The notes under the pieces: generated by a model | Told to the model about the DNA's origin: nothing | What the model saw: the letters and a program-made list of their open reading frames with translations, nothing else | Databases searched by the model: none | Made by a program: the position numbers and the translations under genes | In this document: piece by piece, positions 1,336 to 62,209 of the stretch | Layout: each line of letters opens with the position of its first letter | Numbering within the stretch: position 1 is the stretch's first letter | Assembly (NCBI RefSeq): GCF_032062105.1 | Contig: NW_026940671.1 | Location: 62,001-125,871, forward strand | Reading direction: 5' to 3' | Length of the DNA: 63,871 nt | From: Saccostrea cucullata | Lineage: Eukaryota

Positions 1336-4300
1336 ATATATGTCCGCCCTCGCTATGCTTTATGAAGGAAAACAAACGGGTGAAACCTAGAGGAACTGGT
1401 AAGTTAACATTTCACTTACTAAAGATCTAAGCTTTATCCTCTAAATTTAAAATTTCTTCAAATAAATTTTCTTAGTACTGTGGAATCATTTTATTTCTTT
1501 GGGGCTCAATGTTCGTGGTTAAGCAAAATGTTGCTGGTTCGTGGGACAGTTAATTCTGGCGTTACTCATTTACTCAGTAAATCCAAAAAAATAAATATAT
1601 TGCAAAATATTTGTTCTGTTGGTACAAATTCATGGATAAGGTTAACCCACAAAATCCACGAACTTTGGTCCCCCGCGAATAACGGTGATTCCACGGAATA
1701 AGAAGATAGATGGAAGGAGAGGCGCGTGGATGAAATGCATTTACACTATATACTGTATAAATTCAGGTAACAGTGCATTTTACAATGGCGACATCGTCCT
1801 TGATGAAATGGCTGCAGACATGATGTATGGACCTGTAAAAAGACGTCGAAAACGAGCGACAACTCGTATGAAAGACCGGTTATGGAAGGATGGCATAATG
1901 TACTATCAATTTGCGCCATCACTTTGTGAGTTATATCTTTCCGTCTACGCTTTATTTTAGATCGAAAGATCTATTAATCTCAATCACTGAATTCTCTTAT
2001 AGCATTCTTTAAATTTTCTCAAAAAAAGAGAAGAAAAGAAATTATTTTTTATAACAATAGTCTTAAAGCTACTAGTATTTTATTCATTTTTAAAAATATT
2101 TTCTGCTCAGAGACGGTTTAATCTAAGTTTGACTTACTAGTAGTTAAATCACCCAAAGTTATTTTTCTTTTTTTACAATCTCACTTCACGCCCTATTAAA
2201 TTTGATAATTAATCATATAATATAAACTATTGAAAAGAAACTGAATGCCCTCGTCTCTTTAATGTTAATTTTCTTTCAAAAAACCCTTTTCAATTTAAAG
2301 GGCCATTTTCTGATGAACGGGTGTATTATTTCAATATTACCATTGTCATGATAAACGTCAAATCATCATCGTACTCAAAACCCCAAACAACATTCCTATA
2401 CGATTGAAAATATTTGGTAACGTATGTATAAAAATACGATGTCATTTTTCTAAGTTTTAAAGAATATTTCACAAGAACACTTTGTAGAAGTGCAACGATT
2501 TGATTTTTTCTTTTGTAATAGCATAATATTATCTTCTTTTAAGAAATCTTCATTACTATATGATTTTTTTCTCGATCAAAAATACTATTTCTGCTTCACC
2601 AAAATGGTGAAAAAAAATATATTTCGAAGACCCCTGAGAATTATGTTTAAAACATATATTTGATTATTTTTCTATCTTAAAACACTGATAGAATCAGTAT
2701 ACTTTCCTATCATTTAATGTATTAATTAACACTTTAATTATAAGGAATTTATTTATCAGCCAGGTCAGCCAGGAAAGCAGTCAAGAAGGCGATGGAACAT
2801 ATATCAAACAGGACGTGTATAGTATTCAAAAAGAAAAGGAAGAAAAACCCGGACTTTGTTAGATTCATCAGTGAACCAGGGTATAGAATTTGAGTTTTGT
2901 TGGCTATAAAATGTACATTATACAATGCCTTTCTAAAATTATATTTTAGCAATTTAAATGACAGTAACACTTACTGAATATGATAAAAAAATAAAATGTT
3001 CAATAGGTTGTAGTGTGTGACTGAAGGAATAAAATGCTACTTTTGATATGAAAGTGAACGCATCTTTATAATATACATGTACATGTACTGCAGTTTCCTC
3101 TTTTACACTTAGTACCTATAACGTTTAGTTGACGGTAGCATTTAAGTACTAGGCTTTCGTTATATTACGTCATTCTTTTAGCTCTCTGTATATTTAAAAA
3201 TTTTATTATGTCTCCCCATTTACCTTCCCAGCTGCTGGTCCAATGTAGGCCGCGTGGGGGGCCTGCAAAATCTCAGTCTCGGTTACGGATGTGGGAGAGA
3301 GGGTACGGCAATTCACGAAATTAACCATGCGCTAGGATTCTGGCATGAGCAGGTCATAATTTTAAAATTCATTATATCTTTAAATGAAGAAAATGATTAT
3401 CACTATTCTTATTAATTTTTGAAAGAAAATTCAAATGAGTTTTTAGGTAGGAAAATAAATTAACTAGAAAATGAATGTTTTTTACCCTGTTTTCTTGTTT
3501 ATTTTAGGCCCGATCTGACAGAGACAAATACGTGGAGGTTAACACGGATAATGTCTCCCCAAACTATATTGGAGATTTTGCCAAATTAAATAAAACAATT
3601 GCCGTATCAAGAGGGTACGCTTACGATTATTCCAGTATTATGCATTACAGTGAACGGACGTTTACCAACAATGGACTCAAGACAATTAAGGCAGGTGATG
3701 AAGTTGTGGTCGATATTCAGTACAGCGATTCATTAGAGTAAATGTTTGATGATCTTACGTATATTTTATGTTGTAGGTGATAGGTATAGGAAAAGAATTA
3801 GCTCTTAGGATCGGGCAGCGTGATGGTCTCAGCAATATCGACATTGCACAACTTCGAGATATGTATTTTTGCAATCGGAAGCAAGATAATGAAGAAACAA
3901 GTAAATGACTTGTAATTTATTAAATACGTGTAATAAGCATTTATATTTTTTGACATTTCTATATATATTCTGATAAAATAGAAAAGTTCTAAAGGCGGTT
4001 CTAATATTTGCAGCATGCCCAAAAGATTGGATAAAACACAAACGTAGCTGTTACAAATTTGTTACCCGCCCTAGGCTTCAGTATGCTGCCGCATACAAAG
4101 CATGTACGGAGTCCTTTAGCACCCTGGTCCATCTTAACACTGCAAACGAAGATAGATTTTTAAAACAATATTTAAAGAAAAACTTTAAAAAGTCGACAAA
4201 ATGGCGAACAGGTGCTCGTAGAATAAATGATACCTTTGTATGGGACAATGGAGAAGACCGGAAGCCGAAGTCTATGACGTTTACTGCCTGGAATAGTGGT

Positions 4301-5025
4301 CCCCCAGAGGGATATTCTACCATGGTTCTTGGACGGGAAAACTCGACATCTGATTTTGCCTGGGAAGGGGCGTGGACAGGATCGGTCAAACAGCTTCCAG
4401 ATCACGCATTCTCCTTCATCTGTGAACGGAAGGCGAGACGTATGTACAACTGTACATGTATTATGCAATCAAAATTATTCTTTGCTTACAGGCATACTAG
4501 AAGTTACAAAAAACAATTAATTTAGTATTGGATTTGTATAAAATAAAATTCCGTTTGACAGGGCTTTTTGTGTATTTTCCCCCTGTTTTATCTTGTCTGA
4601 TTTCTCCTGTAGGTAAGTGCTTACCTCTAGAGTTTGAGGATGGGAGAGATTATCGCGGGAATCTCCAGCATACTGTATCGGGGATCACGTGTCAAGACTG
4701 GACATCTAAATACCCCCAACGGCACAGTCTGCTGGCAGGAATTACCGCAGATGTAAATCCAGACGGTCTGGGGGATCATAATTATTGTAGGAACCCATTC
4801 CGCATGCGCAGAAAAAGACCATGGTGCTTTACAACGAAAAAGAACGTTGAATGGGAGTATTGTGACGTCACTATTTGTAAAGGATCTCAAAATAACACAG
4901 TTGATAATAAACAGAAAAGAGAGAAACTTGTTTCCAAGAATAGTATATCGATATCTGAAAAGTTTGAAGAATACTCAAATAGTATATCAGAACAGATTAG
5001 CGCAAATAACGTTATACAGCCGTAG
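1336..5025 (+). CDS. Astacin-family zinc metalloprotease with C-type lectin and kringle domains (5' end lies outside the window)
   Basis: Phase-consistent exons 1336-1398, 1767-1925, 2760-2880, 3232-3352, 3508-3690, 3777-3900, 4014-4439, 4613-5025. Motifs: prodomain YNGDI, furin site RRKR|ATT, zinc motif [17 protein letters not shown], Met-turn [22 protein letters not shown]...SCYKF...FICE, kringle DYRG...CQDW...HNYCRNP...PWCF...WEYC. Confidence 0.93.
1476..1698. mobile_element. MITE in the astacin gene intron
   Basis: CTGTGGAATCA...TGATTCCACGG inverted termini; accounts for the spurious ORF 1480-1701. Confidence 0.6.
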
Positions 5026-23325: not shown

Positions 23326-26300
23326 TTAAACTTCTATTACATTATTTTTACGCAATATGACGTCTCTTTCTAATACTTGACAAACACATGCTTTTCTCAA
23401 CCAAGTGTTGTGTCTGTTGTACGCTTCGCTCTCTAAAGAGAGCCAGTTCACTAATCGTCCCCGTTCATTCCATTCATGAAGCTTTTTAAGAATCATGTTC
23501 TTTGCCTCTTCCATAAACTACAAAAAGAATATGATACGTTTAAAGTTTTACTCCTTTTGTCCCTTAACTCCTCTTACCTTCAGTTATAATAACATTGAAA
23601 ATTCGCCTCCTGCACTTCGTGAAATAAAACATAAATTTACTTACAAGAGCAGTACAATCTTTATTTGTTCGATGTCTCTTTGATAACAGGATACTTGTGT
23701 ACTCCTAAAATTGTAAAAACAATTTATCACCCATTCATTGTTTCATTATTTACAGTGTATATCTCTTATCTTCCATAGCAAAATATTTCTACTAGAATGT
23801 TCTTTAATTCTCTTCTATTTTTAAGCACTGTAGTTTTAAAGTATTTATTTCTAACATGTATTTAACAAAAGGTAGAAATTAAATTAAATTAAAAACGATT
23901 ACTACTGTTAAAAATATGTGAGTAAAATTACATATCTTTTATATATCCGAATTCTAATTATTAGGGTTGATAAAAAGCATACTCTCATTTTCTTTCGTTA
24001 GTGTTTAACGATGACGGACATGATGTTATCTCATGGAAGATAGTACAAAATACATGTATGTCAAGAACAAAATAAAATAGAATAAAAGTATAACAAAACA
24101 TTTATTGACTCTGTTCGAGAGCAAAATGCGTTTTGTTGACCCTCGAACCAATTTGTCTGCCTGAGGCCGTAGACAGCTTGGTTCGTGGGTCCGACAAAAC
24201 GCATGTTGCCCTAGAACTCAGTCAATAAACGTATAATATGAACATTCAAGGTCTACCTACCTGGCATGCTTTTATATCATATCGTATCGCCTTTATCTAG
24301 AAATAAATAAAAAGAGAATTTTTTTATTTGTTTCATTTGCAACACAGGATGTTTAACATTTTTATCATCCAACATATACGAGGGTTGATCCCAAAGTAAT
24401 GTCATACGCCACTTTGTCCATATCTTTAATATTTGGCGTCATATTATTAAATATAATCTATATATCAAAGGCTGAGAGTAAAGGTAAAGCTTAACGAGCT
24501 GACGATTGCATTAAATAGGGTTAATGAAATTATTTTGGTGAATATTGGCACAAGTTGCCTGTACAAATACACGAGCTAGCCTTGCGAGTGCATTTGTACA
24601 GCCAGCGAGTGCCACTATTCACCAATATAAGTTCAATAACTTCTTTATTATATAGCTAAAACATTTCCTCATAATTTATAATGACTTCAACTAAAAAAAA
24701 CTCAAATTAATGATTTTTTTCTGTGAGGGTATAAAAATCAACGCCTATCCTGTAAGGTTTCAATATTGGGTTTTTCCGATGACCCTACCGAGCGTTACTG
24801 TATGATTTGCTTCTTTAGGTTTCAATGGGTCCAATACGTACTTTTTAATATTTTTAATAATTAATTTCATTTTTTGCTAAAATAAACACATCTTACCTAA
24901 ATGTCACTCCCTTTCTTAAATTTAACTCGGAGAATTTGACCAGACGACATTTTTTTTGTTTAACGCTCGGTAGGGTCATCGGAATGATGCGATATTGAAC
25001 ACTTACAGGACAGGCGTTAATTTGAATATCGATACTAAAATATCATTAATTTGCGTTTGTTTTTGTTGGAATTATTATTATAAATTATAATAAATTGTTT
25101 TAGCTATATAATAAAAATGTGATTGAACTGAAATTGGTGAATAAATTCAAGCTCGTGCATTTGTACAGCCAACTTGTGCCAATATACACCAATTTAAGTT
25201 CAATAACCCTATAATGTTTCAAATTGTTTCATACTGAATCATTTACGGAAAGTCTCGTCAACCTTATCAATCTTTTAATGTTTAGTTAGACAATGACAGT
25301 TTATATGTATTTATTTGTCGTAGAAAAGGATACCTTTTGTGTTCCTAAGTCGGTAACATCCAGTAACACCAAACACTTAGTGCTGTCAAAGTGTTCTATG
25401 CTTTTGTCCCAAATATTCTTTCGAAGTACTGTTATCAGCTACAAAAAAAAAAAGATTCTCAAAATTAAACCCTAATTAGAAAATCGGACAAATCCAATCT
25501 TGTTAACCATTTTAATAATTACTATATTGAATATGGCATATTCTTTGCATCAACGGTAAGACAAATTAAATTCTCACCTGCTTCCGGAATTTCCGCACTA
25601 AAAACAAGGTCAATGGATAGGTAAAAATTCCTAAAAATATCCCAGGTGTAACATGTACATTCCACATGTCGGTTACATTTCTGTTCAAGAGAGTATCTAA
25701 AAGACCGATAGAAATGTATAAGAATGTCACCGAAAGACTTATAAGCACAGTTACTCCGTATTGGAACATGCCATTTTTAAGTATTCTGTAATTCCTCAGT
25801 AAACAGAATGCATTTGCAAAGTCAAGGATATGTTCCATCTGCTTCTGAACCTGCAATAAAAACTGTCCCTATATAACTTGTATAAAATATGCCCTTGACG
25901 TTTCTTGTCAAAAGACGATATTCCGCAATGACATTGCATCAGATGATTCCAATGCTAACATTAAGTACTGAACAGGTTAACTTAATGAACAGATGTATAA
26001 ATAATGAAAATAGAAAGAGAGAGAAACACCTGCACTGAATTTAAAGCACGGTAGTCCGGTTCCATTAACGCTGGAAATTCAAAATGTGATGCGTTAAAGC
26101 ACGCAGAGTTCTTCAGTTTCCCTTCTAACTCTATCAGTGGAGCCCCGTTCTGATTTCTATTATCTTCAACAAATCTAGATTCTGACAATGAAATAATTAT
26201 TGTTTTATTCCATTTGCCAATTCTGACAAAAACTTAACATTTATCCTTCTGGATTTTTTGAATTTAAAAACAGCTCACCTAATTCTGTCTGATGTGCAGC

Positions 26301-27337
26301 ATCTACAACTCCTATGTAATATTAAAAATATTTCGAAAATAAGATTTCATCAGAATAATATTTAAATGCAGTAAGGATATACAAATATTTACAATACAAT
26401 ACTCTTTTAAACACGAAATCGAATTGCGAAGAAAACATTTTCCTATTTTACCACAAAACCTTTTACCTTACAAAAATAAATGCTCAAGTATAAACAAAAT
26501 GACATACCTGAATGATAGTATGCTTCATGGATTTTAGCAGATACATCGCTTTCTTTTCGAGCATCAATACACACATACGGCTTCAAAAATGGCGGCAAAT
26601 CATTATCGGTATCTAAGCCATGTAATATCAAGGGAATTATTCTCAAACTGAACTTCCGATCAAATGACATTTGAACAGCTAACCTTGCCTCCATGTCACA
26701 CCAATGACTACACAGAAAGTCTGGACTAAGGACCAATAACACTTTGACACTTTTTTCCATCTCGTGTTGGATATTCTCATCAATTTTTTTGGCAATCGTA
26801 AAATCACGATCATAATACATGCACTTCAAAAGAAATCTGTTTTCAAGTTCTTGACATATTTTTAAAGCTTGGTCACCATCAACGGCAGAATGAGCGATAA
26901 ATAAATGGTAAAGTTTACCAGAAGGGAGATCATCGAATTGTTTTCCGTCAATACTGACTTGATCACTGTTTATCTGGAGGATATCCCCAGTGTCATCACT
27001 GTCCAGTAAAGGACAGTTTTCTTCTCGGCTGTTTGTTTTGGACCTTGAAATGTGATGATGTAAATTCAAACTTCTTGTGTTAGAGTCATTTTCAATTTTA
27101 CACAGTTGTAAGTCAACATTTTCCGCCATAATATCTAATTCTTCCTCATTATTTTCTCTTCTCTGTTGAAAACCGGAATTAAAAAGCATATCAATGTATT
27201 AATTACGTTTCAAATTTTGAAGGAGATATTCTTATTTCCAATCAGATTGACTTCTCTAAATGATTTATATAAAGTGAAAAAAAATCCTTAAACACACTAA
27301 TAAAACAAAGCTACAAACCAAAAATACTTACTTTCAT
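23326..27337 (-). CDS. TIR-domain protein with two TM helices and a TMEM268-like C-terminal region, ~503 aa
   Basis: Minus-strand exons 27337-27332, 27162-26508, 26311-26279, 26181-26030, 25850-25578, 25438-25334, 24296-24261, 23704-23645, 23517-23326 join in frame (1512 nt). TIR: YHLFIAHSAVD, DRDF, VLLVLSPDFLCSHWCDME, IIPLIL, LPPFL. Two hydrophobic segments in 25578-25850. C-terminal IRYDIKACQEY and RHNTWLRKACVCQVLE. Confidence 0.85.
24098..24232. mobile_element. Hairpin (foldback) MITE in a TIR gene intron
   Basis: Imperfect palindrome over its whole length: TTTATTGACT..ATGCGTTTTGT..CGAACCAA / TTGGTTCG..ACAAAACGCAT..AGTCAATAAA. Confidence 0.75.
24516..25211. mobile_element. Long-TIR foldback element in a TIR gene intron
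   Basis: ~280-bp imperfect arms from TAGGGTTAATGAA/TTCAATAACCCTA inward to TTCCGATGACCCTACCGAGCGTTA/TAACGCTCGGTAGGGTCATCGGAA. Confidence 0.8.
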
Positions 27338-27609
27338 TTCCAAGTTTTGAAAACATCTCGTAACTATTTAACTTGCATTGCACAAGAGTACAGCGATTTA
27401 AAGCTTTCTGACAATAACAAGCTCATTGATTAAAAGTAGACCTTAAAAAATGTGCATTTAAAATATGAATTGAACTGTGAAAATTCCATTTTCCATTTCG
27501 AATCAGTACACTTTAAACTATACAGCAGGAAATTTTCAGAAAAAGCATTTCATTTCTCGTCCCTCAAGAAGGTTGTTCCTATAAAATAAACAGAAAGTAG
27601 AAAGCGACA
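27338..27609. promoter_or_regulatory. Putative bidirectional promoter between the TIR gene and the furin-repeat gene
   Basis: 272 bp between divergent ATGs. kappaB-like GGAAATTTTC (~27528) and GGAATTTTCA (minus strand, ~27478-27487); IRF-type GAAATGGAAA (minus strand, 27490-27499). Confidence 0.55.
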
Positions 27610-30600
27610 ATGAAACAAGCCACTCTTTTTGCTATATTTCTAGTGTTACTATTTCAGGTAAGAAATATATGCTATTTCTTATTCTTACTTACGTATATAT
27701 TTTATCGAAAAATAACAGGAAAATCCGTCGTCAATTCAGTGTATAAATAATGGACTAACAATTAGTATGAAAAACATCAGTCAGCATTTGACGCAATGTT
27801 AAATTTATTTGCTGACAAGGTCATTGTATCGACCATAGTACTTACGAAATACTGCTTCTAAAAGAGACTGCTGAAATTCTTGTTTCATCAACTTGTTTGT
27901 CAGTAATTTACTTCGTTTTAGAAATAGTTCATACGTAGAGCATGCTTTTGCGTATCGAATCAACTGAGATATATATAAACTCCGTATGCAGGTGATAAAC
28001 GTATATTGCTGCATAAGAAAGGGAAGTTGGCGATAGAAAAGTTAAAGTCATAACGTTTATCATAGAGCTTGCTTGTTAAATTACCATTAACGTCATTTTC
28101 AAGTAAAATATCCGAGCATGAAACAGATATGTCAGATGCTCCTGAAAATATTCAATATTTTATTTTTCTTTATGCAAATGGGAAAAACCAAATAACACTT
28201 TTACTCAAAGACACAAACCACCAGTGTCTTGTCACTTAAATTATATGTCAATCAGATATTCTCATTTCTGTTTGCCAACAATAAATCCAAAAGCATTAAT
28301 TCTTTACAATTTATCATTAACTATATAAAATCATCAGCTTTCTTTAAAAAAAAAAACACACAGACTATTTTATGATTTACTTTTTTTTTTATTTTTGTCA
28401 GCAAAGTTTACAAAATGAGGGCCATGTTGGACTTTTAAAAGCTTCCGTTCGCGCCAAAACAGGGTATATTGCAAGATGCCCACCTGCAAAATACATAAAC
28501 AACGGAGAATGTGTGGATCAGTGCCCTCCATTCAAAATTTCAATATTTAATGGCTTTGCAAAAATATGCGTAACAAGAAATGAGATCTCTTCTTGTCCGA
28601 CCGGTTCTTGCAACAACTTTTGTTACAAGCTAGAATGTGTGAACATGTGTCCATATTACACATTTGACTTGAACACCTCATGTATTGTACGGTGTCCCAA
28701 AGATGCTAATTTTGTTGTAACTCTTAACTGTGATGATGATTGCTTTTTTGTAATGAAAACATGCTATTCAAAGTGCCCCGATTCTTATTATTATTTGATG
28801 AAAACACCTTATTTTGACTGGTGTTTAAAACAATGTCCAATATACACCGCTAAGAATAATTTCACTTGTGAACTATCGTGCAGTACTGACAAACAATACC
28901 TTTTTAACAACACATGTTTGAAGGCTTGTCCATCTAGTCATAAGTACATGTTCCTTCATGTTTCTAAATTCAATGAAATCTTAATGTGTACCGATAATTG
29001 CCATGATCGAGTGCTATATGGAAATCAATGCATTTCAAAGTGTCCTTCATTAACTGTTTTGTACAATGGAACTTGCTCTACTGGCTGTCCATCAACACAC
29101 CCTCTTCTTTATTCTTCGCAGTTGAAATTTCGGGATGACATTCAGCTCAATAGGTCTGACCTTGCATGTGTCAGTGAATGTGGGAATGATTACAGCATTT
29201 TTAATTCTACATGTGTTGCAGATTGTCCTGACTCATTTCCATTTTCACTCAACGGAACTTGTACGCAGGAATGCGCCGATGATAAACCAGTCCATGTAGA
29301 AAAACAGACAAAGTGCATTCCATCATGTCCCTTGGATTATTTTCTCTTTAACGATACAGGCATATGTTATGACCGATGCCCGAAATCATATGTGTATACG
29401 TACAATCAGACATGTCACTCAGAATGTCCAGATTATCTCCCTTTCCAACTGACACGTCAAAAGAAAAGTTTTATTCTAATTGGTCATTCATTTCAACCCG
29501 TTTTGTATTATGAATGTGTCGAAATGTGCCCCAATCTACATTATCAACAACAATGTGTTGATGTTTGTCCATTAAATGCTAAATATAAATCATTCAAATC
29601 CTGTGTAAATCAATGCTCTGGGGATCTCCCTTTCTATCTTACTTTAACAATGCAATATGTTTTCTATGCACATGAAAAGGAAACTATTTGCGTTAAGTCG
29701 TGTCCTGCATACTATGTTAATCATACAAAAGTTTGTACATCAACATGCCCCTCAGACTCTATGTTTCTTTTCAACAATATTTGTCTAAAGCGTTGTCCGT
29801 TAACGAAAAAATTTGGAGAAAAAAGTCATTCATTTTACGTGTGCGTTCAAAAATGTCAACATTTGTCTTTCAATAACATATGTGTTGATAAATGTCCAAA
29901 TGCTGCAAAATATAATTCAAATTCAACTTGTGTAAGCAAATGTAGTAACTCATTATTACCTTACTATTACTTAAATACAACCAAAGTCAGAGCCCGTTAC
30001 TACGGCTACAAGATGGAAACAAATTTCTACTGCTTGGCGTCATGTCCGTCGAATTTATTTGGCTTTGAACATAGATGTGTTGATAAATGTCCGAAAGCAA
30101 CATTCTATTTTGGAAAGAAATGTTTATTTGACTGCCCACTGTCTTATCCATATAAAATACCGCCATTACAAAAATGTGCAAATGTTTGTCCAAACACGAC
30201 ATATTTATATAACAGGACGTGTGTTCCAATGTGTCCAGACAGTACGTTTCAGTTTCAAAACAGATGTGTTTCAGAGTGTCCAGACTCTCACTCGTGGATT
30301 TATACAAAGAATGCTTCTGCAAAGCATGTTCAATACCTATGCGTTGATGTTTGTCCAGTAGCTACTTTTGAATTTAAACCTAATAAACTTTGCTTTGATA
30401 AATGTCCAGATGGTTTCTTCATTGACCGTAATGAATGTGTGAAAACATGTCCAAAGAACAGAAAACTGGTAAACAACTCCACAAAAGAGTGTACAATGAA
30501 CTGTACCGGCATGTACCTGCAGGGAAATTTTTGTGTGAATCTCTGTGTCGAAGAAATGTTTATATTTCAAAATTCATGTGTGAATTCATGTCCCTCTTCA

Positions 30601-32035
30601 CATCCTCTTAAATATATAACCAACAATAAAATACTAACCCAAAAGTTTTGTGTCAAAGAATGTTTAAACAACACATATATTTTCAATGCATCATGTTTCG
30701 ACGTTTGCCCAAAAGGGCTCCTTGCTTATAATAGAGATTGCTTAAAGGTATGTCCGTCGTCACATCAAATTATTAATGTCATTACAAGAGAATGTGTCCA
30801 GAAATGTCCAAGGAATCTTGTTTTATCATATCCCAATAAATGCGAGAAAAGGTGTCCATCTGGGAAACAATTTATTGAAAATGGAATTTGTCTAAGCTCC
30901 TGCAAGAACAACACCCGTTTATACTATCCAACTTCAAATGGATACCTCTGTACACACTCGTGTTCAGGTGAATATGTCCAGCTTCAAGAGACAAATCGTT
31001 GTGGGAAAAAATGTCCCTTCAACAGAATCATAATTGATGAAATTTGTATGCTTTATGAAAAATGCACAGATCATCCACTCATCGAATACACAGCCAAGGG
31101 CAAAGTCTGTAAACATGGATGTTCTGCTGGAATGTATCTGAATGGGACCAATTGTATAGATTCTTGTCCAAAAGATATGTTTATTCTTAACAAGACTTGT
31201 GTACAGACTTGTCCAGAGTCAGCTCCGTATCTGTGGAAGAGTTTTGGGATGACTTTCTCTCGAAAATGTTTGCCTCGTTGTCCATTTTTTACGGTTATGA
31301 ATAGCTCTAATTGCATTCTAGTAGAAGAGTGCATTGGATTCCTTGGTGAAAAGAATAACGCTATTCATAACGGAAAATGCGTTCCAGAATGTCCCTATGG
31401 GTCTGTGGAATTTAAGGACAAAAAATGTAGATATAGATACGAGTTTATTTTACCAATCGTTATATGTTCTGTCATTTTTATTGGCCTTGTTACATCAATT
31501 TGTAAGATGGTGTCGTGTAGGATGAAGAAAACTAATACGGTGAGTCAAAAACATGTGTTAAAAAATATTATTCTTATATTCAAATTGATTTTTTTTAAAT
31601 ATTAGAATTCTAACAGTTAAGGTGCACCAAAGCCGTATTGTTTTTTAAATTCAAACTTTGATATCAAGAAGATCTTTTATCCATTTATTTAAAGATGTGG
31701 TAAATACATTGTTGTTACAGAATACGCAACAAAGGTCTGATGGAATAGATAAACAAAATGAATTCACCAGCTTAATTGAGGACGAAACTGAAGCAAAAAG
31801 CATAATCGAAGGCTTTGAAAGACAATCAATCGAGGACAATGAATTTACAGGTTCTTTCCAACCCGGAAATAATATCAAAAGTGTGATAGACGATGAAAAA
31901 CGTCTCCCTAATGAAGACGATAATTTACAAGGCTTGATCCATAGCAAGGCATCAGTTAAAGATACCTCCGAAAACGACGAAAGACAGCCAAATGAGACAG
32001 AAAATAAAGTAACTATAGATGTACATGAAATTTAA
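27610..32035 (+). CDS. Type I membrane protein of tandem furin-like Cys-rich repeats (PCSK5-like repeat region, no protease domain), ~1166 aa
   Basis: Signal exon 27610-27657 (MKQATLFAIFLVLLFQ|gtaag). Single 3138-bp exon 28402-31539 with dozens of CxxxCP...C repeats and TM FILPIVICSVIFIGLVTSIC. Final exon 31721-32035 encodes an acidic tail. All junctions phase 0. Confidence 0.9.
27710..28135 (-). mobile_element. Penelope-like RT fragment in intron 1 of the furin-repeat gene
   Basis: Translates as YISQLIRYAKACSTYELFLKRSKLLTNKLMKQEF...FRKYYGRYNDLV. Confidence 0.8.
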
Positions 32036-54543: not shown

Positions 54544-57500
54544 TCAAAGCTCCACAATATCTGAAGAACTAACTACATGTTCCTGTAAGCGCATAAGATG
54601 CAGTAAGGACTTGTAAAGGTTCTTCACACTATCCCAGGTGGTCATTTCCCTAACACGAATTTTGTTAAATCTTTGTTCAAACTGTAATTTGTCACCTTGA
54701 AGAACGATGAAGACATATCGCACACCGTCTGTCAAGATGTTAAAAAGAGGCATGTTTTTGTTGTTCGTTTTCCTCGTCAGGCGCTCTGTCTGAAGTATGC
54801 AGAGTTCTAGGACAGCTTGAACTACAGAATCTGGCTTGAGAGATCTAGAGCTTTTGGCTTCGACTGCTCCAATAACTTCTCCATTACTGTTGACGATTCT
54901 ATAATCAAATTTGCAATTGGGGAGATAAGAACAATCCACATTTCTTTCAATTTCAACAGAAAGGTTTAAACATGAACAGAGTGGAAAGAAAATTTCATTT
55001 AATATAAGCCTTGTTCCCACTTCTGTCCTACACAGAGACTCAAAGTTACAAGTTAGCGTTTCTTCTTTTTCATGTCCGAAAAATTTAACTGTTGATGATG
55101 CTATATGAATTCTACGTTTAAACTCGGAAATCATCTGATCTACTTGTAATTCATTTTCACAAAGATTTTGTTGTAAATCCAACTCTTCCACAGAGCTTTC
55201 AAAATCGAAGTAGCGAGAAAATAAGTCTAAATTCCATTGAGAACAAGGTTTGTCGATGTCGTCCTTTTTATTCGGTGTACGTTCAGCTCTTATTCGTGGC
55301 CTTTCAATTGAATGCTCCTTTTCAAGGGAAGCCAGATGCTGTGGATTTATGTCTGCCAATATGTCGATTTCATCCGATTCCTGATCAGGCGAGGACAGAT
55401 GTTGTTGAGGGAAAACAATTGGTGATCTCTTGATTTCACCGTTTGCATTGCTGGTGGATTTCATATTTGAGATGCCATTTCCTAGTAATACATTATCAGT
55501 TTTGAGATTTAAACTTTCATTTTTGTTAAATCCAGTGCTTATAACTTCTTCATTGTAAACTTTTCCAGATAAACTTTCCCAACTATCCTTCTTGAATTTA
55601 TTATTCTTCTCCTCCCATTTTCTTTGAGAACCAGGTTTTCCGGTTTCCAGTACAAATCGTTCTTGTTCAAGGTCACCGCTTATTTTCTTTGTTTCTATAC
55701 TAACTCCGGAATCTTGCGCTCTCCCTTGAGTCTCATTCTTAAGGTCTAAGTCAACATCTTTTATTGCTGGGACGCTGCACAAATCATGTTTTTCAGTATC
55801 AATATGTTTTCTGGGGCTAAGCTCTGTTATATCCAATGCAATAACATTGTCTTGCTTTCTTTTCTTTGGTGGAGAAAATGTCTCATCTATGTTCTCTTCA
55901 ATTGACTCGTCATCGCTAATGGCTATAGGATTTTCTATGGAATTATCAAGCAATTCGATATTGATTTGACCTGTCGGAGAAAATATGCTCGCACCTGTTG
56001 AAAGTGTTCTCTGCTGGTCTTGATTATCAGTGTCTCCTTTTTTGACTGCATTAGGTCTTTTTGACAAAGAACCTGAATCCGTGCCATCAAGGGAAGCACC
56101 TCTTGAATCTTGAGAATGGATGCTAGATAATTGCCCTTTTGGAAACGATGTTCCACTTCCAGCCTTGTCATAAAGTTTGAGGACTTCATTTTGTTGAAAA
56201 TTTTTGGTAACTTTTCTTAGTTCCTCCGACCTTCCTTTGACAGGTATCGGCTTCTCGGTATTTTCAAGTAATCTATTGGCAAATGTTTGAGATAAATATT
56301 GCGTTCCAGGTAACTTCTTCTTGATTTGCATTCTGCTTGAACCACCCCATGTCACTTTGCGAGGAGATCGAAGAGGGCTTAAGAAGGAATTCCATTTCAG
56401 TTTATTCTCTATAAGGAAATCAAAGATATAAAATTAGAAACTTAAATTTTAGTTTAAAAAAATAATTCTATTTTGATTCCTTTGTATTTTAATTAAAATA
56501 TATTTGTTACTATTCAGACTCAGTGCTTAGAGCGTCTGCTCTAAAGTGGGGGATCCTTATGTCCTGGATTCAAATCCACTGCGGGACGTGGAGACCGGTC
56601 CTATGGATGAGACCGTATAAACCTAGGTCGCGTGTCGCAGTAGGTACATGTACTGGCACGAAAGTGCTCAATGTCCCTGAGTGACGGGTATATGTCTAAA
56701 TTTGCAGCCCTTCCACCGACAAATGGTGGCTTCTCTATATGAGTGAAAATTGTCGAAACGGACGATAAACAAATAAGTCCACGGAGGAAGGACATGCATG
56801 AAATAATAACAATGTATTTTATGTAATCCATGTGAAGAACACCAAGAGAACAATTACTGGGAAGAAACGGACTCAAAGATATTTGAAATAAGTGTACACA
56901 GTTTTCAGGAAAATTAAACATTTAATTTGCCATGACTCACATGAGAACAGAACTTCAAATTGTAACTAAGAAGTTCAATCGTACCTGGGGTCTGGTTTTA
57001 ATTTTTTTTTTTAATATTATCATTTTTTTTTTACACATGCAGCTCCTAATTTTTCTGTCAAACAATGTTTAACACTACTGTCTCAACATGACGAAATCTT
57101 TCAATCGGAAAAGATCTGTATCATGGTATTTCTGAATGATTAGGACAATACTAATGACTACTTCGTTTGTTTGTTGCTTAACATCCCTCTCGAGAATTTT
57201 TCACTCATGTGCCAGTGGAGAAGCCGCCACGAGCGGTGGAGGGCTCTACTCCGTAACTCGGCACTCAAGGCAATTAAACAGTGAGGGATCTTTTTTTCGT
57301 ACCAACACACACCTACTTCGACATCGGACCTCGGTTTATATGGTCTCATCCATGTCTTCATGTCCCGCACTCGAACCCGCGACGCGGACTACTTCGTAAC
57401 TAAGGCACTATTTCCTCTAATAAAAGTTTACATCTCAGAGAAAAGAATAATACAGGTGTATGTTGGTACCTATTAATTAAAGTATGACTCTCTTGAAAAT

Positions 57501-61350: not shown

Positions 61351-62209
61351 CATACTTGCCAACCTCCAGCATTTAAAAATCTGGTCATGACCAGATTTGG
61401 AAAGTAAAAAATCTGGTCATAACGCGTAACGACATTCACGACATATTTACCATGATTTAATTTTATACATATATATACAAAGTATTTGTGTATTGAGAAT
61501 TCTTTTATTGAAAAAGGATTTAATTAACTATGACAAAAAATTCATACATAATTTGATTTAAATTTACATGTTAAAAAAATGGAAATTGAAGGTTTTTTGT
61601 ATTAGTATTGACCTGTAGTAAGTGTGCATTAAAGCCTTTTCAGTTTTCTGCTAAATTTGAAAGAATACCAATTTCAGTTGTGAAGTTATTTTTCCTCTCT
61701 CTTAATTAATTAACTACTGCAATATGTTTTAAATGTGAAGTTAGGCCAACACTGTTATCGATCATTTTATTTCATCTAGAATGAAAGTTTTTTTTCCAAG
61801 ATTCCTTGATATGTAGATCTACATAAATATCGTTTCTCTTTGTTATATCAGAGAAATGTGTTTAGTTCAACTTGTTCCTGTTGGCCCAGATAACGATTTA
61901 GTTCTATCGTTCCAAGCCATTTTAATTGACTTCAAACATTGATTTGTCAAAACAACACCCAGTTAATTGTTAACACCTGCACTGATAATTAATCCATCGG
62001 CATTGTTTACGTAGATCTAAGCTTGGGTTGTAACTGGAAGTTAAAAGTGCAACCTAATTTACGAACCAAATCCGGAAAATCGGGAGATTTTCGGGTTGAT
62101 CGGCAAAAATCGGGTGATAAGCATGACCCGCCGGGTCATAAAAAATAATCGGGTTACGGGTTAAAAAATCGGGTGTGACCCGACGAAATCGGGTGAGTTG
62201 GCAAGTATG
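61351..62209. mobile_element. Non-autonomous DNA transposon, 859 bp, 6-bp TSD
   Basis: TIR CATACTTGCCAAC/GTTGGCAAGTATG, TSD ATTATC on both sides, subterminal AAATCGGG/AAATCTGG repeats. Confidence 0.88.

Follow-up and report, generated by a model that had tools for sequence, protein, structure and literature searches.

Does a TIR domain in the oyster Saccostrea cucullata really continue into a membrane module resembling TMEM268, and if so, where does that module come from and what might the combined protein do? The question is raised by positions 23326-27162 of a stretch of 63,871 nucleotides (contig NW_026940671.1 of assembly GCF_032062105.1, forward-strand positions 62,001 to 125,871; hereafter the window), for which a first-pass annotation made from the letters alone had proposed such a fusion. 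We found the gene to represent a real, uncharacterised fusion family and a putative variant of the membrane-tethered TIR adaptor.

One spliced gene for a TIR domain and its tail

The gene lies on the minus strand and consists of eight coding exons (27129-26508, 26311-26279, 26181-26030, 25850-25578, 25438-25334, 24296-24261, 23704-23645 and 23517-23326). All seven introns have GT-AG ends, and the exons form a single open frame of 490 residues whose translation is identical, letter for letter, to the database protein P0002, listed as an uncharacterised S. cucullata protein. The proposal that the TIR domain stands upstream of the membrane module in one gene was confirmed by this frame and by contigs from four of four public runs. 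The runs come from a close relative or a divergent allele (in the TIR exon, 51 of 664 letters differ); X1 is RNA by its record, while the RNA nature of X2 and X3 is a guess.

The TIR exon (26508-27162), which encodes a disordered N-terminal stretch (residues 1-63) and the entire TIR domain from the annotated ATG at 27129 and ends in phase 1, was covered by contigs in all four runs. The letters of a 33-nucleotide linker micro-exon (26279-26311) sat between its flanking exons in every run, the joint 23703-24260, adjoining a 36-nucleotide exon, was found in 4/4 runs from three studies, and the junction of exons 4 and 5 was exact in two runs (X1 and X2). In X3, the TIR exon, exon 3, exon 4 and the last exon all stand on a single contig of 1788 nucleotides; in X1, one contig reaches from the TIR exon to exon 4, and a second contains the last exon. 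Upstream, a mostly untranslated 5' exon (27332-27485, minus) carries an in-frame ATG at its end (27337-27335), and contigs of X2 and X3 span 27330-27485 and are spliced to the TIR exon with GTAAGT as donor. The upstream ATG is preceded by an in-frame stop, and its use would add 13 residues, including those from the start of the next exon; judged from the sequence, the true protein may thus be 503 residues long. Introns 5 and 6 (24000-25230) contain repeats, among them an inverted pair at about 24470-24880 and 24960-25230 that gives opposite-strand joints.

An annotation artefact, with a TIR-only gene lying ahead of a separate membrane-protein gene, could be argued from the Crassostrea gigas protein P0001, whose four near-identical TIR units lack the tail, and from several database entries consisting of the tail alone. 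We consider this explanation largely refuted and give it hardly any weight: one contig runs from the TIR exon to the last exon, both parts occur together in the Logan protein P0003 and in records of five further genera, and in three paralogues the phase-1 end of the TIR exon falls at an identical position. P0001 itself (845 residues; tandem units with 63% identity to this TIR) could be a true array of TIR units or the product of a tandem gene cluster joined in error.

To delimit the family, we searched a profile of three tails against 1.84 billion representative proteins and, at an expectation value (E) of 0.001 or better, retrieved 29 proteins, of which one is a false hit. The genera represented by named members are Saccostrea, Crassostrea/Magallana, Mytilus, Pinctada, Mercenaria, Ruditapes and Gigantopelta, the last a gastropod. 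Among 26 members scanned, eight carry a Pfam TIR domain above the cut-off and one a partial TIR just below it, most of the others being fragments. The last exon had 21 matches in the S. cucullata genome at E ≤10 (16 at E <0.01), a count that haplotype duplicates may swell, and a full TIR exon was present in 6 of the 14 stretches (≤10 kilobases each) taken around such matches. Seven matches form a tandem cluster of about 78 kilobases on one contig (G000:C10979:213900-291750), three of them preceded by full TIR exons.

The TIR domain (26509-26916, minus; residues about 72-207) is of the adaptor/receptor class. It matched Pfam TIR_2 above the cut-off over residues 77-195 (E 4.8e-16, profile scan of P0002) and has the flavodoxin-like fold of TIR domains; PDB entry 1fyx (TLR2 P681H) was among the structures that came up. 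As had been pointed out earlier, the layout departs from that of Toll-like receptors (TLRs) and IL-1 receptors, in which the TIR is C-terminal to a single transmembrane helix: here it is N-terminal with two helices after it, and P0002 has neither an ectodomain family nor an N-terminal hydrophobic stretch.

Predicted membrane topology and probable ancestry of the tail

Two hydrophobic peaks follow the TIR domain, as the earlier reading had it, at about residues 302-324 (Kyte-Doolittle 2.23) and 336-357 (1.77), and no further 19-residue window exceeds 1.3. Hydropathy, the AlphaFold model computed from 24 sequences (mean predicted local distance difference test score, pLDDT, 79.2; predicted template-modelling score, pTM, 0.65; residues 1-63 disordered) and the basic flanks predict two adjacent transmembrane helices (25754-25686 and 25652-25587, minus), the arrangement of DUF4481/TMEM268. 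The linker between the helices is about 11 residues long, with three Lys/Arg and no Asp/Glu before the pair and six Lys/Arg and one Asp/Glu after it. The charge pattern agrees with a predicted membrane hairpin that would leave both protein ends cytosolic, as had been proposed.

The C-terminal part of the tail is encoded by three exons. The 36-nucleotide exon 6 (24261-24296) supplies the last strand of the module with the invariant Tyr401 and Cys406 (24266-24264), and 12 of the 14 residues of the first tail motif named in the first-pass annotation indeed fall on it; exon 7 (23645-23704) encodes a helix of the C-terminal subdomain; and the last exon (23326-23517) carries the RH...CxC...E motif (23415-23368), whose RH...CxC part was found, as described, at residues 462-477. 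Cys406 is present in 22 of 22 alignment rows with a residue, and His463, Cys471 and Cys473 in 24 of 24, a conservation that suggests one predicted zinc site formed by all four. Metal binding and acylation had both been offered for the His and Cys residues of the motif; we favour metal because the fourth residue, Cys406, is equally invariant, and regard acylation as less likely. Four database models (P0004, P0019, P0051 and P0052) lack the short internal tail exons and thus Cys406, through either exon skipping or annotation error. The protein ends in hydrophobic-x-Val (23329-23340, minus), and the C-termini of 12 of 24 family proteins read hydrophobic-x-Val/Ile/Leu, which we take to resemble a class II PDZ-binding motif.

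The tail of P0002 did not match DUF4481 directly: no Pfam family was assigned to it, and PF14800 (cut-off 25 bits) gave no row for P0002 at E up to 10. The same profile matched 4 of the 28 members of alignment A4 (best E 3.3e-06), and its best trace in the S. cucullata genome was a TIR-bearing paralogue, P0050, which passes the cut-off (26.5 bits) together with its Crassostrea virginica orthologue P0053 (27.1 bits). A family profile of 17 tails, built without these two, scored 22.6 bits against P0050, a value reached in none of 500 window shuffles, with an alignment that takes in the second helix, the Tyr...Cys stretch and the RH...CxC motif; hhalign gave a probability of 81.8 over 135 columns. 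Against P0053 the profile reached only 4.2 bits, with 34/500 shuffles as high. P0050 and the window gene have in common the 36-nucleotide exon and three phase-0 introns, and the RH...CxC...E stretch of the family aligns to the end of the PF14800 profile (positions 246-293 in P0051 and P0052, 257-293 in P0018). In the ESM Atlas, the top three matches by features were DUF4481 clusters (0.85-0.86, 187 shared features), which we treat as leads, and by structure a DUF4481 cluster came second (template-modelling score 0.60, below our bar for naming) after a cluster of 54 mostly molluscan TIR proteins.

The chain through P0050, the Atlas matches and the shared exon and introns support the TIR-TMEM268/DUF4481 reading, and we hold it very probable that the family tail is homologous to DUF4481, with TMEM268 represented by the Pfam profile and the Atlas labels. 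The searches returned TMEM268 of vertebrates or insects as Atlas cluster labels only and not as sequences, and an exon-wise search of the S. cucullata genome, itself weak evidence, found no TIR-free orthologue. TMEM268 (C9orf91; DUF4481, PF14800) likewise has two adjacent transmembrane helices within a larger domain (PMC6748091; this and the other papers given by PMC number are cited from excerpts). It differs in having no TIR domain, P0002 lies under PF14800 detection, and the oyster family has about 20 copies in S. cucullata.

The first-pass annotation made no mention of GOLGA7 or Erf4, a link that we add here. Exon 3 (26030-26181) encodes the first strand and hairpin of the module and ends at intron A, exon 4 (25578-25850) encodes helix 1 and the two predicted transmembrane helices and ends at intron B, and exon 5 (25334-25438) encodes a cytosolic helix and the second strand and ends at intron C, all three introns being in phase 0. 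In the predicted order, strand 1 and helix 1 precede the membrane hairpin, and a helix, a short helix and strands 2 and 3 come after it, which may correspond to the order in GOLGA7/GCP16 and Erf4 (PF10256; PDB 8HF3 chain B) and in CHIC1/2; phase-0 introns lie at matching places, three in oyster GOLGA7 and two in oyster CHIC. Taking shared intron positions and phases as our own criterion of common descent, we found them for the PF10256 group: the offsets were 1,0,0 / 1,0,0 / 1,1,2 against GOLGA7 (0/60 shuffles) and 1,0,9-15 against CHIC, and 114 of 161,700 ordered triples scored as high. The oyster CHIC exon belongs to PF10256 with E 0.0022.

PF10256 did not match P0002 and was not among the 25 of 38 families listed for alignment A4, profile comparisons with the group gave chance-level scores only, and the similarity to GOLGA7 is not significant. 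The family tail further differs from GOLGA7 in its predicted true transmembrane helices, where GOLGA7 has short palmitoylated ones, and in its added TIR domain and C-terminal Cys/His subdomain. Neither predicted membrane helix of P0002 contains a Cys, the residue that a palmitoylated hairpin would need; the relatives P0013, P0014 and P0015 have Cys clusters where helix 2 ends. On balance, we consider it probable that DUF4481/TMEM268 and the GOLGA7 fold are of common descent, and this likely ancestry of the tail is the part of the analysis worth following.

Candidate functions of the fusion protein

What would such a protein do? We see an even chance that the TIR domain and the predicted two-helix TMEM268/DUF4481-type module on a GOLGA7/Erf4 fold make a non-enzymatic, membrane-tethered adaptor for the sorting or stability of Toll-pathway proteins, and the protein would then likely help set the location and lifetime of immune receptors. 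Starting from the single spliced frame that joins TIR and tail, the helices are predicted to cross the membrane as a hairpin and to leave the TIR, the three-stranded sheet and the C-terminal subdomain in the cytosol, the last probably binding one zinc ion via Cys406, His463, Cys471 and Cys473. Fold and introns suggest a GOLGA7/CHIC-like tail with transmembrane helices in place of short palmitoylated ones. By analogy, the tail would bind a membrane protein from the cytosolic side and set its turnover, a theme common to GOLGA7, whose partners are DHHC enzymes, CHIC2, which acts on a cytokine receptor, and TMEM268, which acts on integrins. GCP16 keeps DHHC9 stable and has no part in catalysis (preprint); CHIC2, a palmitoylated protein bound to the membrane, interacts with the ligase CHIP/STUB1 and governs CSF2RB stability (excerpts of bioRxiv 2023.07.17.549407 and PMC9574515); and TMEM268 binds ITGB4 (PMC6748091) and CD11b (PMC11169502) and guards both from degradation. 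The TIR domain may direct the protein to its target by TIR-TIR pairing with a TLR or a MyD88-like adaptor, and a large number of divergent copies would be in keeping with the size of the receptor repertoire in bivalves. The known membrane-tethered adaptors for TLR sorting, MAL/TIRAP and TRAM, differ in using lipid binding or myristoylation and in their C-terminal TIR, where P0002 has a predicted integral hairpin and a folded tail after the TIR.

The same GOLGA7 likeness would suit a more specific role, in which the tail is an accessory subunit of a DHHC palmitoyltransferase and the TIR brings TIR-bearing substrates such as TLRs and MyD88. Besides fold and introns, this is favoured by a review according to which palmitoylation by zDHHC3 shields integrin alpha6beta4 from being degraded and MYD88 is a palmitoylation substrate of zDHHC6 (PMC10896991), loss of TMEM268 likewise leading to degradation of ITGB4 (PMC6748091). 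Yet CHIC2, of the same Pfam family, is a partner of the CHIP/STUB1 ligase, so that the fold does not fix the function; the GCP16 residues contacting DHHC9 (K11, F13, R16, Y18, Y76, Y86, R118 and R121) are, by eye, not evidently conserved in the family; the TMEM268 knock-out paper does not contain the word "palmitoyl"; and the loss of ITGB4 on TMEM268 knock-out is reported to be ubiquitin-mediated. We regard this role as doubtful, and are equally sceptical of its wider form, in which DUF4481/TMEM268 would be a transmembrane branch of the GOLGA7/Erf4/CHIC superfamily and a DHHC accessory subunit, with the TIR-fused forms as substrate adaptors for TLRs and MyD88. If true, it would also account for the destabilisation of integrins on TMEM268 loss in mammals and would amount to an expanded lipid-modification arm of invertebrate innate immunity.

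Features of the TIR domain bear on two further explanations. Glu147 (26689-26691, minus), which we take to occupy the catalytic Glu position of TIR domains that cleave nicotinamide adenine dinucleotide (NAD; SARM1, plant and bacterial TIRs; helix C), is Glu in 13 of 16 rows and Gln in the three P0050-type rows. It could belong to a sensor-effector like the oyster TIR-STING, in which a ligand or a change in the membrane would be sensed by the tail, whose oligomerisation would bring the TIRs together for signalling or NAD cleavage. The TIR of the C. gigas TIR-STING (PDB 6WT6, 6WT7) ranked second by sequence among solved structures (E 2.3e-23) and is also N-terminal to its accessory module; the divergent copies in tandem, of which one contig has 7 of the 21 last-exon matches, are reminiscent of a receptor family; and in comparison with P0002 the TIR is better conserved than the GOLGA7-like part in nine of nine relatives. 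P0002 differs from TIR-STING in lacking the nucleotide-binding domain of STING, the match being confined to the TIR. However, the outer loop of about 11 residues is too small for an ectodomain, and the retained Glu does not discriminate, as alignments place the same residue in TLR TIR domains. It is also replaced by Gln in the three proteins nearest DUF4481, and in a 2020 survey SARM1 was the only animal TIR with known NADase activity (PMC7075850). Taken together, we find a sensor-effector unlikely, if with some appreciable chance.

The BB-loop, whose proline has a role in TLR signalling, reads Ile112-Ala113 in P0002 (26791-26796, minus) and lacks the Pro-Gly of the signalling adaptors MyD88 and MAL. 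Most relatives have Pro-Gly (Pro in 7 and Gly in 9 of the 14 aligned rows with a residue). Such a loop would fit a plain decoy, in which a TIR anchored in the membrane titrates adaptors away and the tail does no more than anchor it. This we consider improbable, as the proline is kept in most relatives, and as a simple anchor would hardly call for a tail that, in bivalves and a gastropod, retains four invariant Cys and His residues and a folded domain of about 200 residues in the cytosol. Within the adaptor reading, P0002 may damp signalling more than relay it.

Neighbouring features and place among bivalve TIR proteins

The TIR gene stands head to head with a gene for a secreted-type membrane protein (27610-32035, plus), whose ATG at 27610, in a signal-peptide exon, is about 125 bases from the 5' end of the TIR gene. 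This neighbour has an exon of about 1,045 codons with furin-like cysteine-rich repeats (116 Cys in frame; Pfam E 1.3e-28), one membrane helix and then an acidic tail exon, and it is covered by RNA contigs. A promoter shared with the TIR gene and a receptor role of the neighbour are speculative possibilities. Its first intron contains a high-copy repeat (27700-28150), very deep in RNA contigs, in which a minus-strand frame resembles a decayed retroelement fragment. Elsewhere in the window, exons at 1646-5025 (plus) encode C-type lectin and kringle domains as part of a multidomain secreted protein, and a 629-codon open frame with a low-complexity front (54544-56433, minus) has no Pfam match above the cut-off and a C-terminal part resembling, by eye, a PD-(D/E)xK nuclease motif.

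Bivalve TIR proteins are mostly called uncharacterised in excerpts of the literature (PMC10279657, PMC6321704, PMC9334734, PMC5549309, PMC8662601, PMC6836662, PMC7075850 and PMC9402430). The TIR-domain-containing proteins described there resemble the present family in being non-TLR and functionally uncharacterised (PMC10279657); they differ in that the excerpts of later papers call them cytosolic and do not name a DUF4481 tail. The terms "DUF4481" and "PF14800" are absent from the supplement of PMC8662601. The family may already be catalogued among the ecTIR-DC families of Gerdol et al. 2017, an overlap that had been anticipated. Our literature searches listed no paper joining TIR with DUF4481/TMEM268; the pairing of TMEM268 with GOLGA7 was not among the queries.

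The analysis places one expanded bivalve TIR family on the membrane, as a prediction, and gives a likely ancestry for its tail. Human TMEM268 has knock-out phenotypes in sepsis and cancer models and, to our knowledge, no known molecular function; the link to GOLGA7 would supply a fold for human DUF4481/TMEM268.
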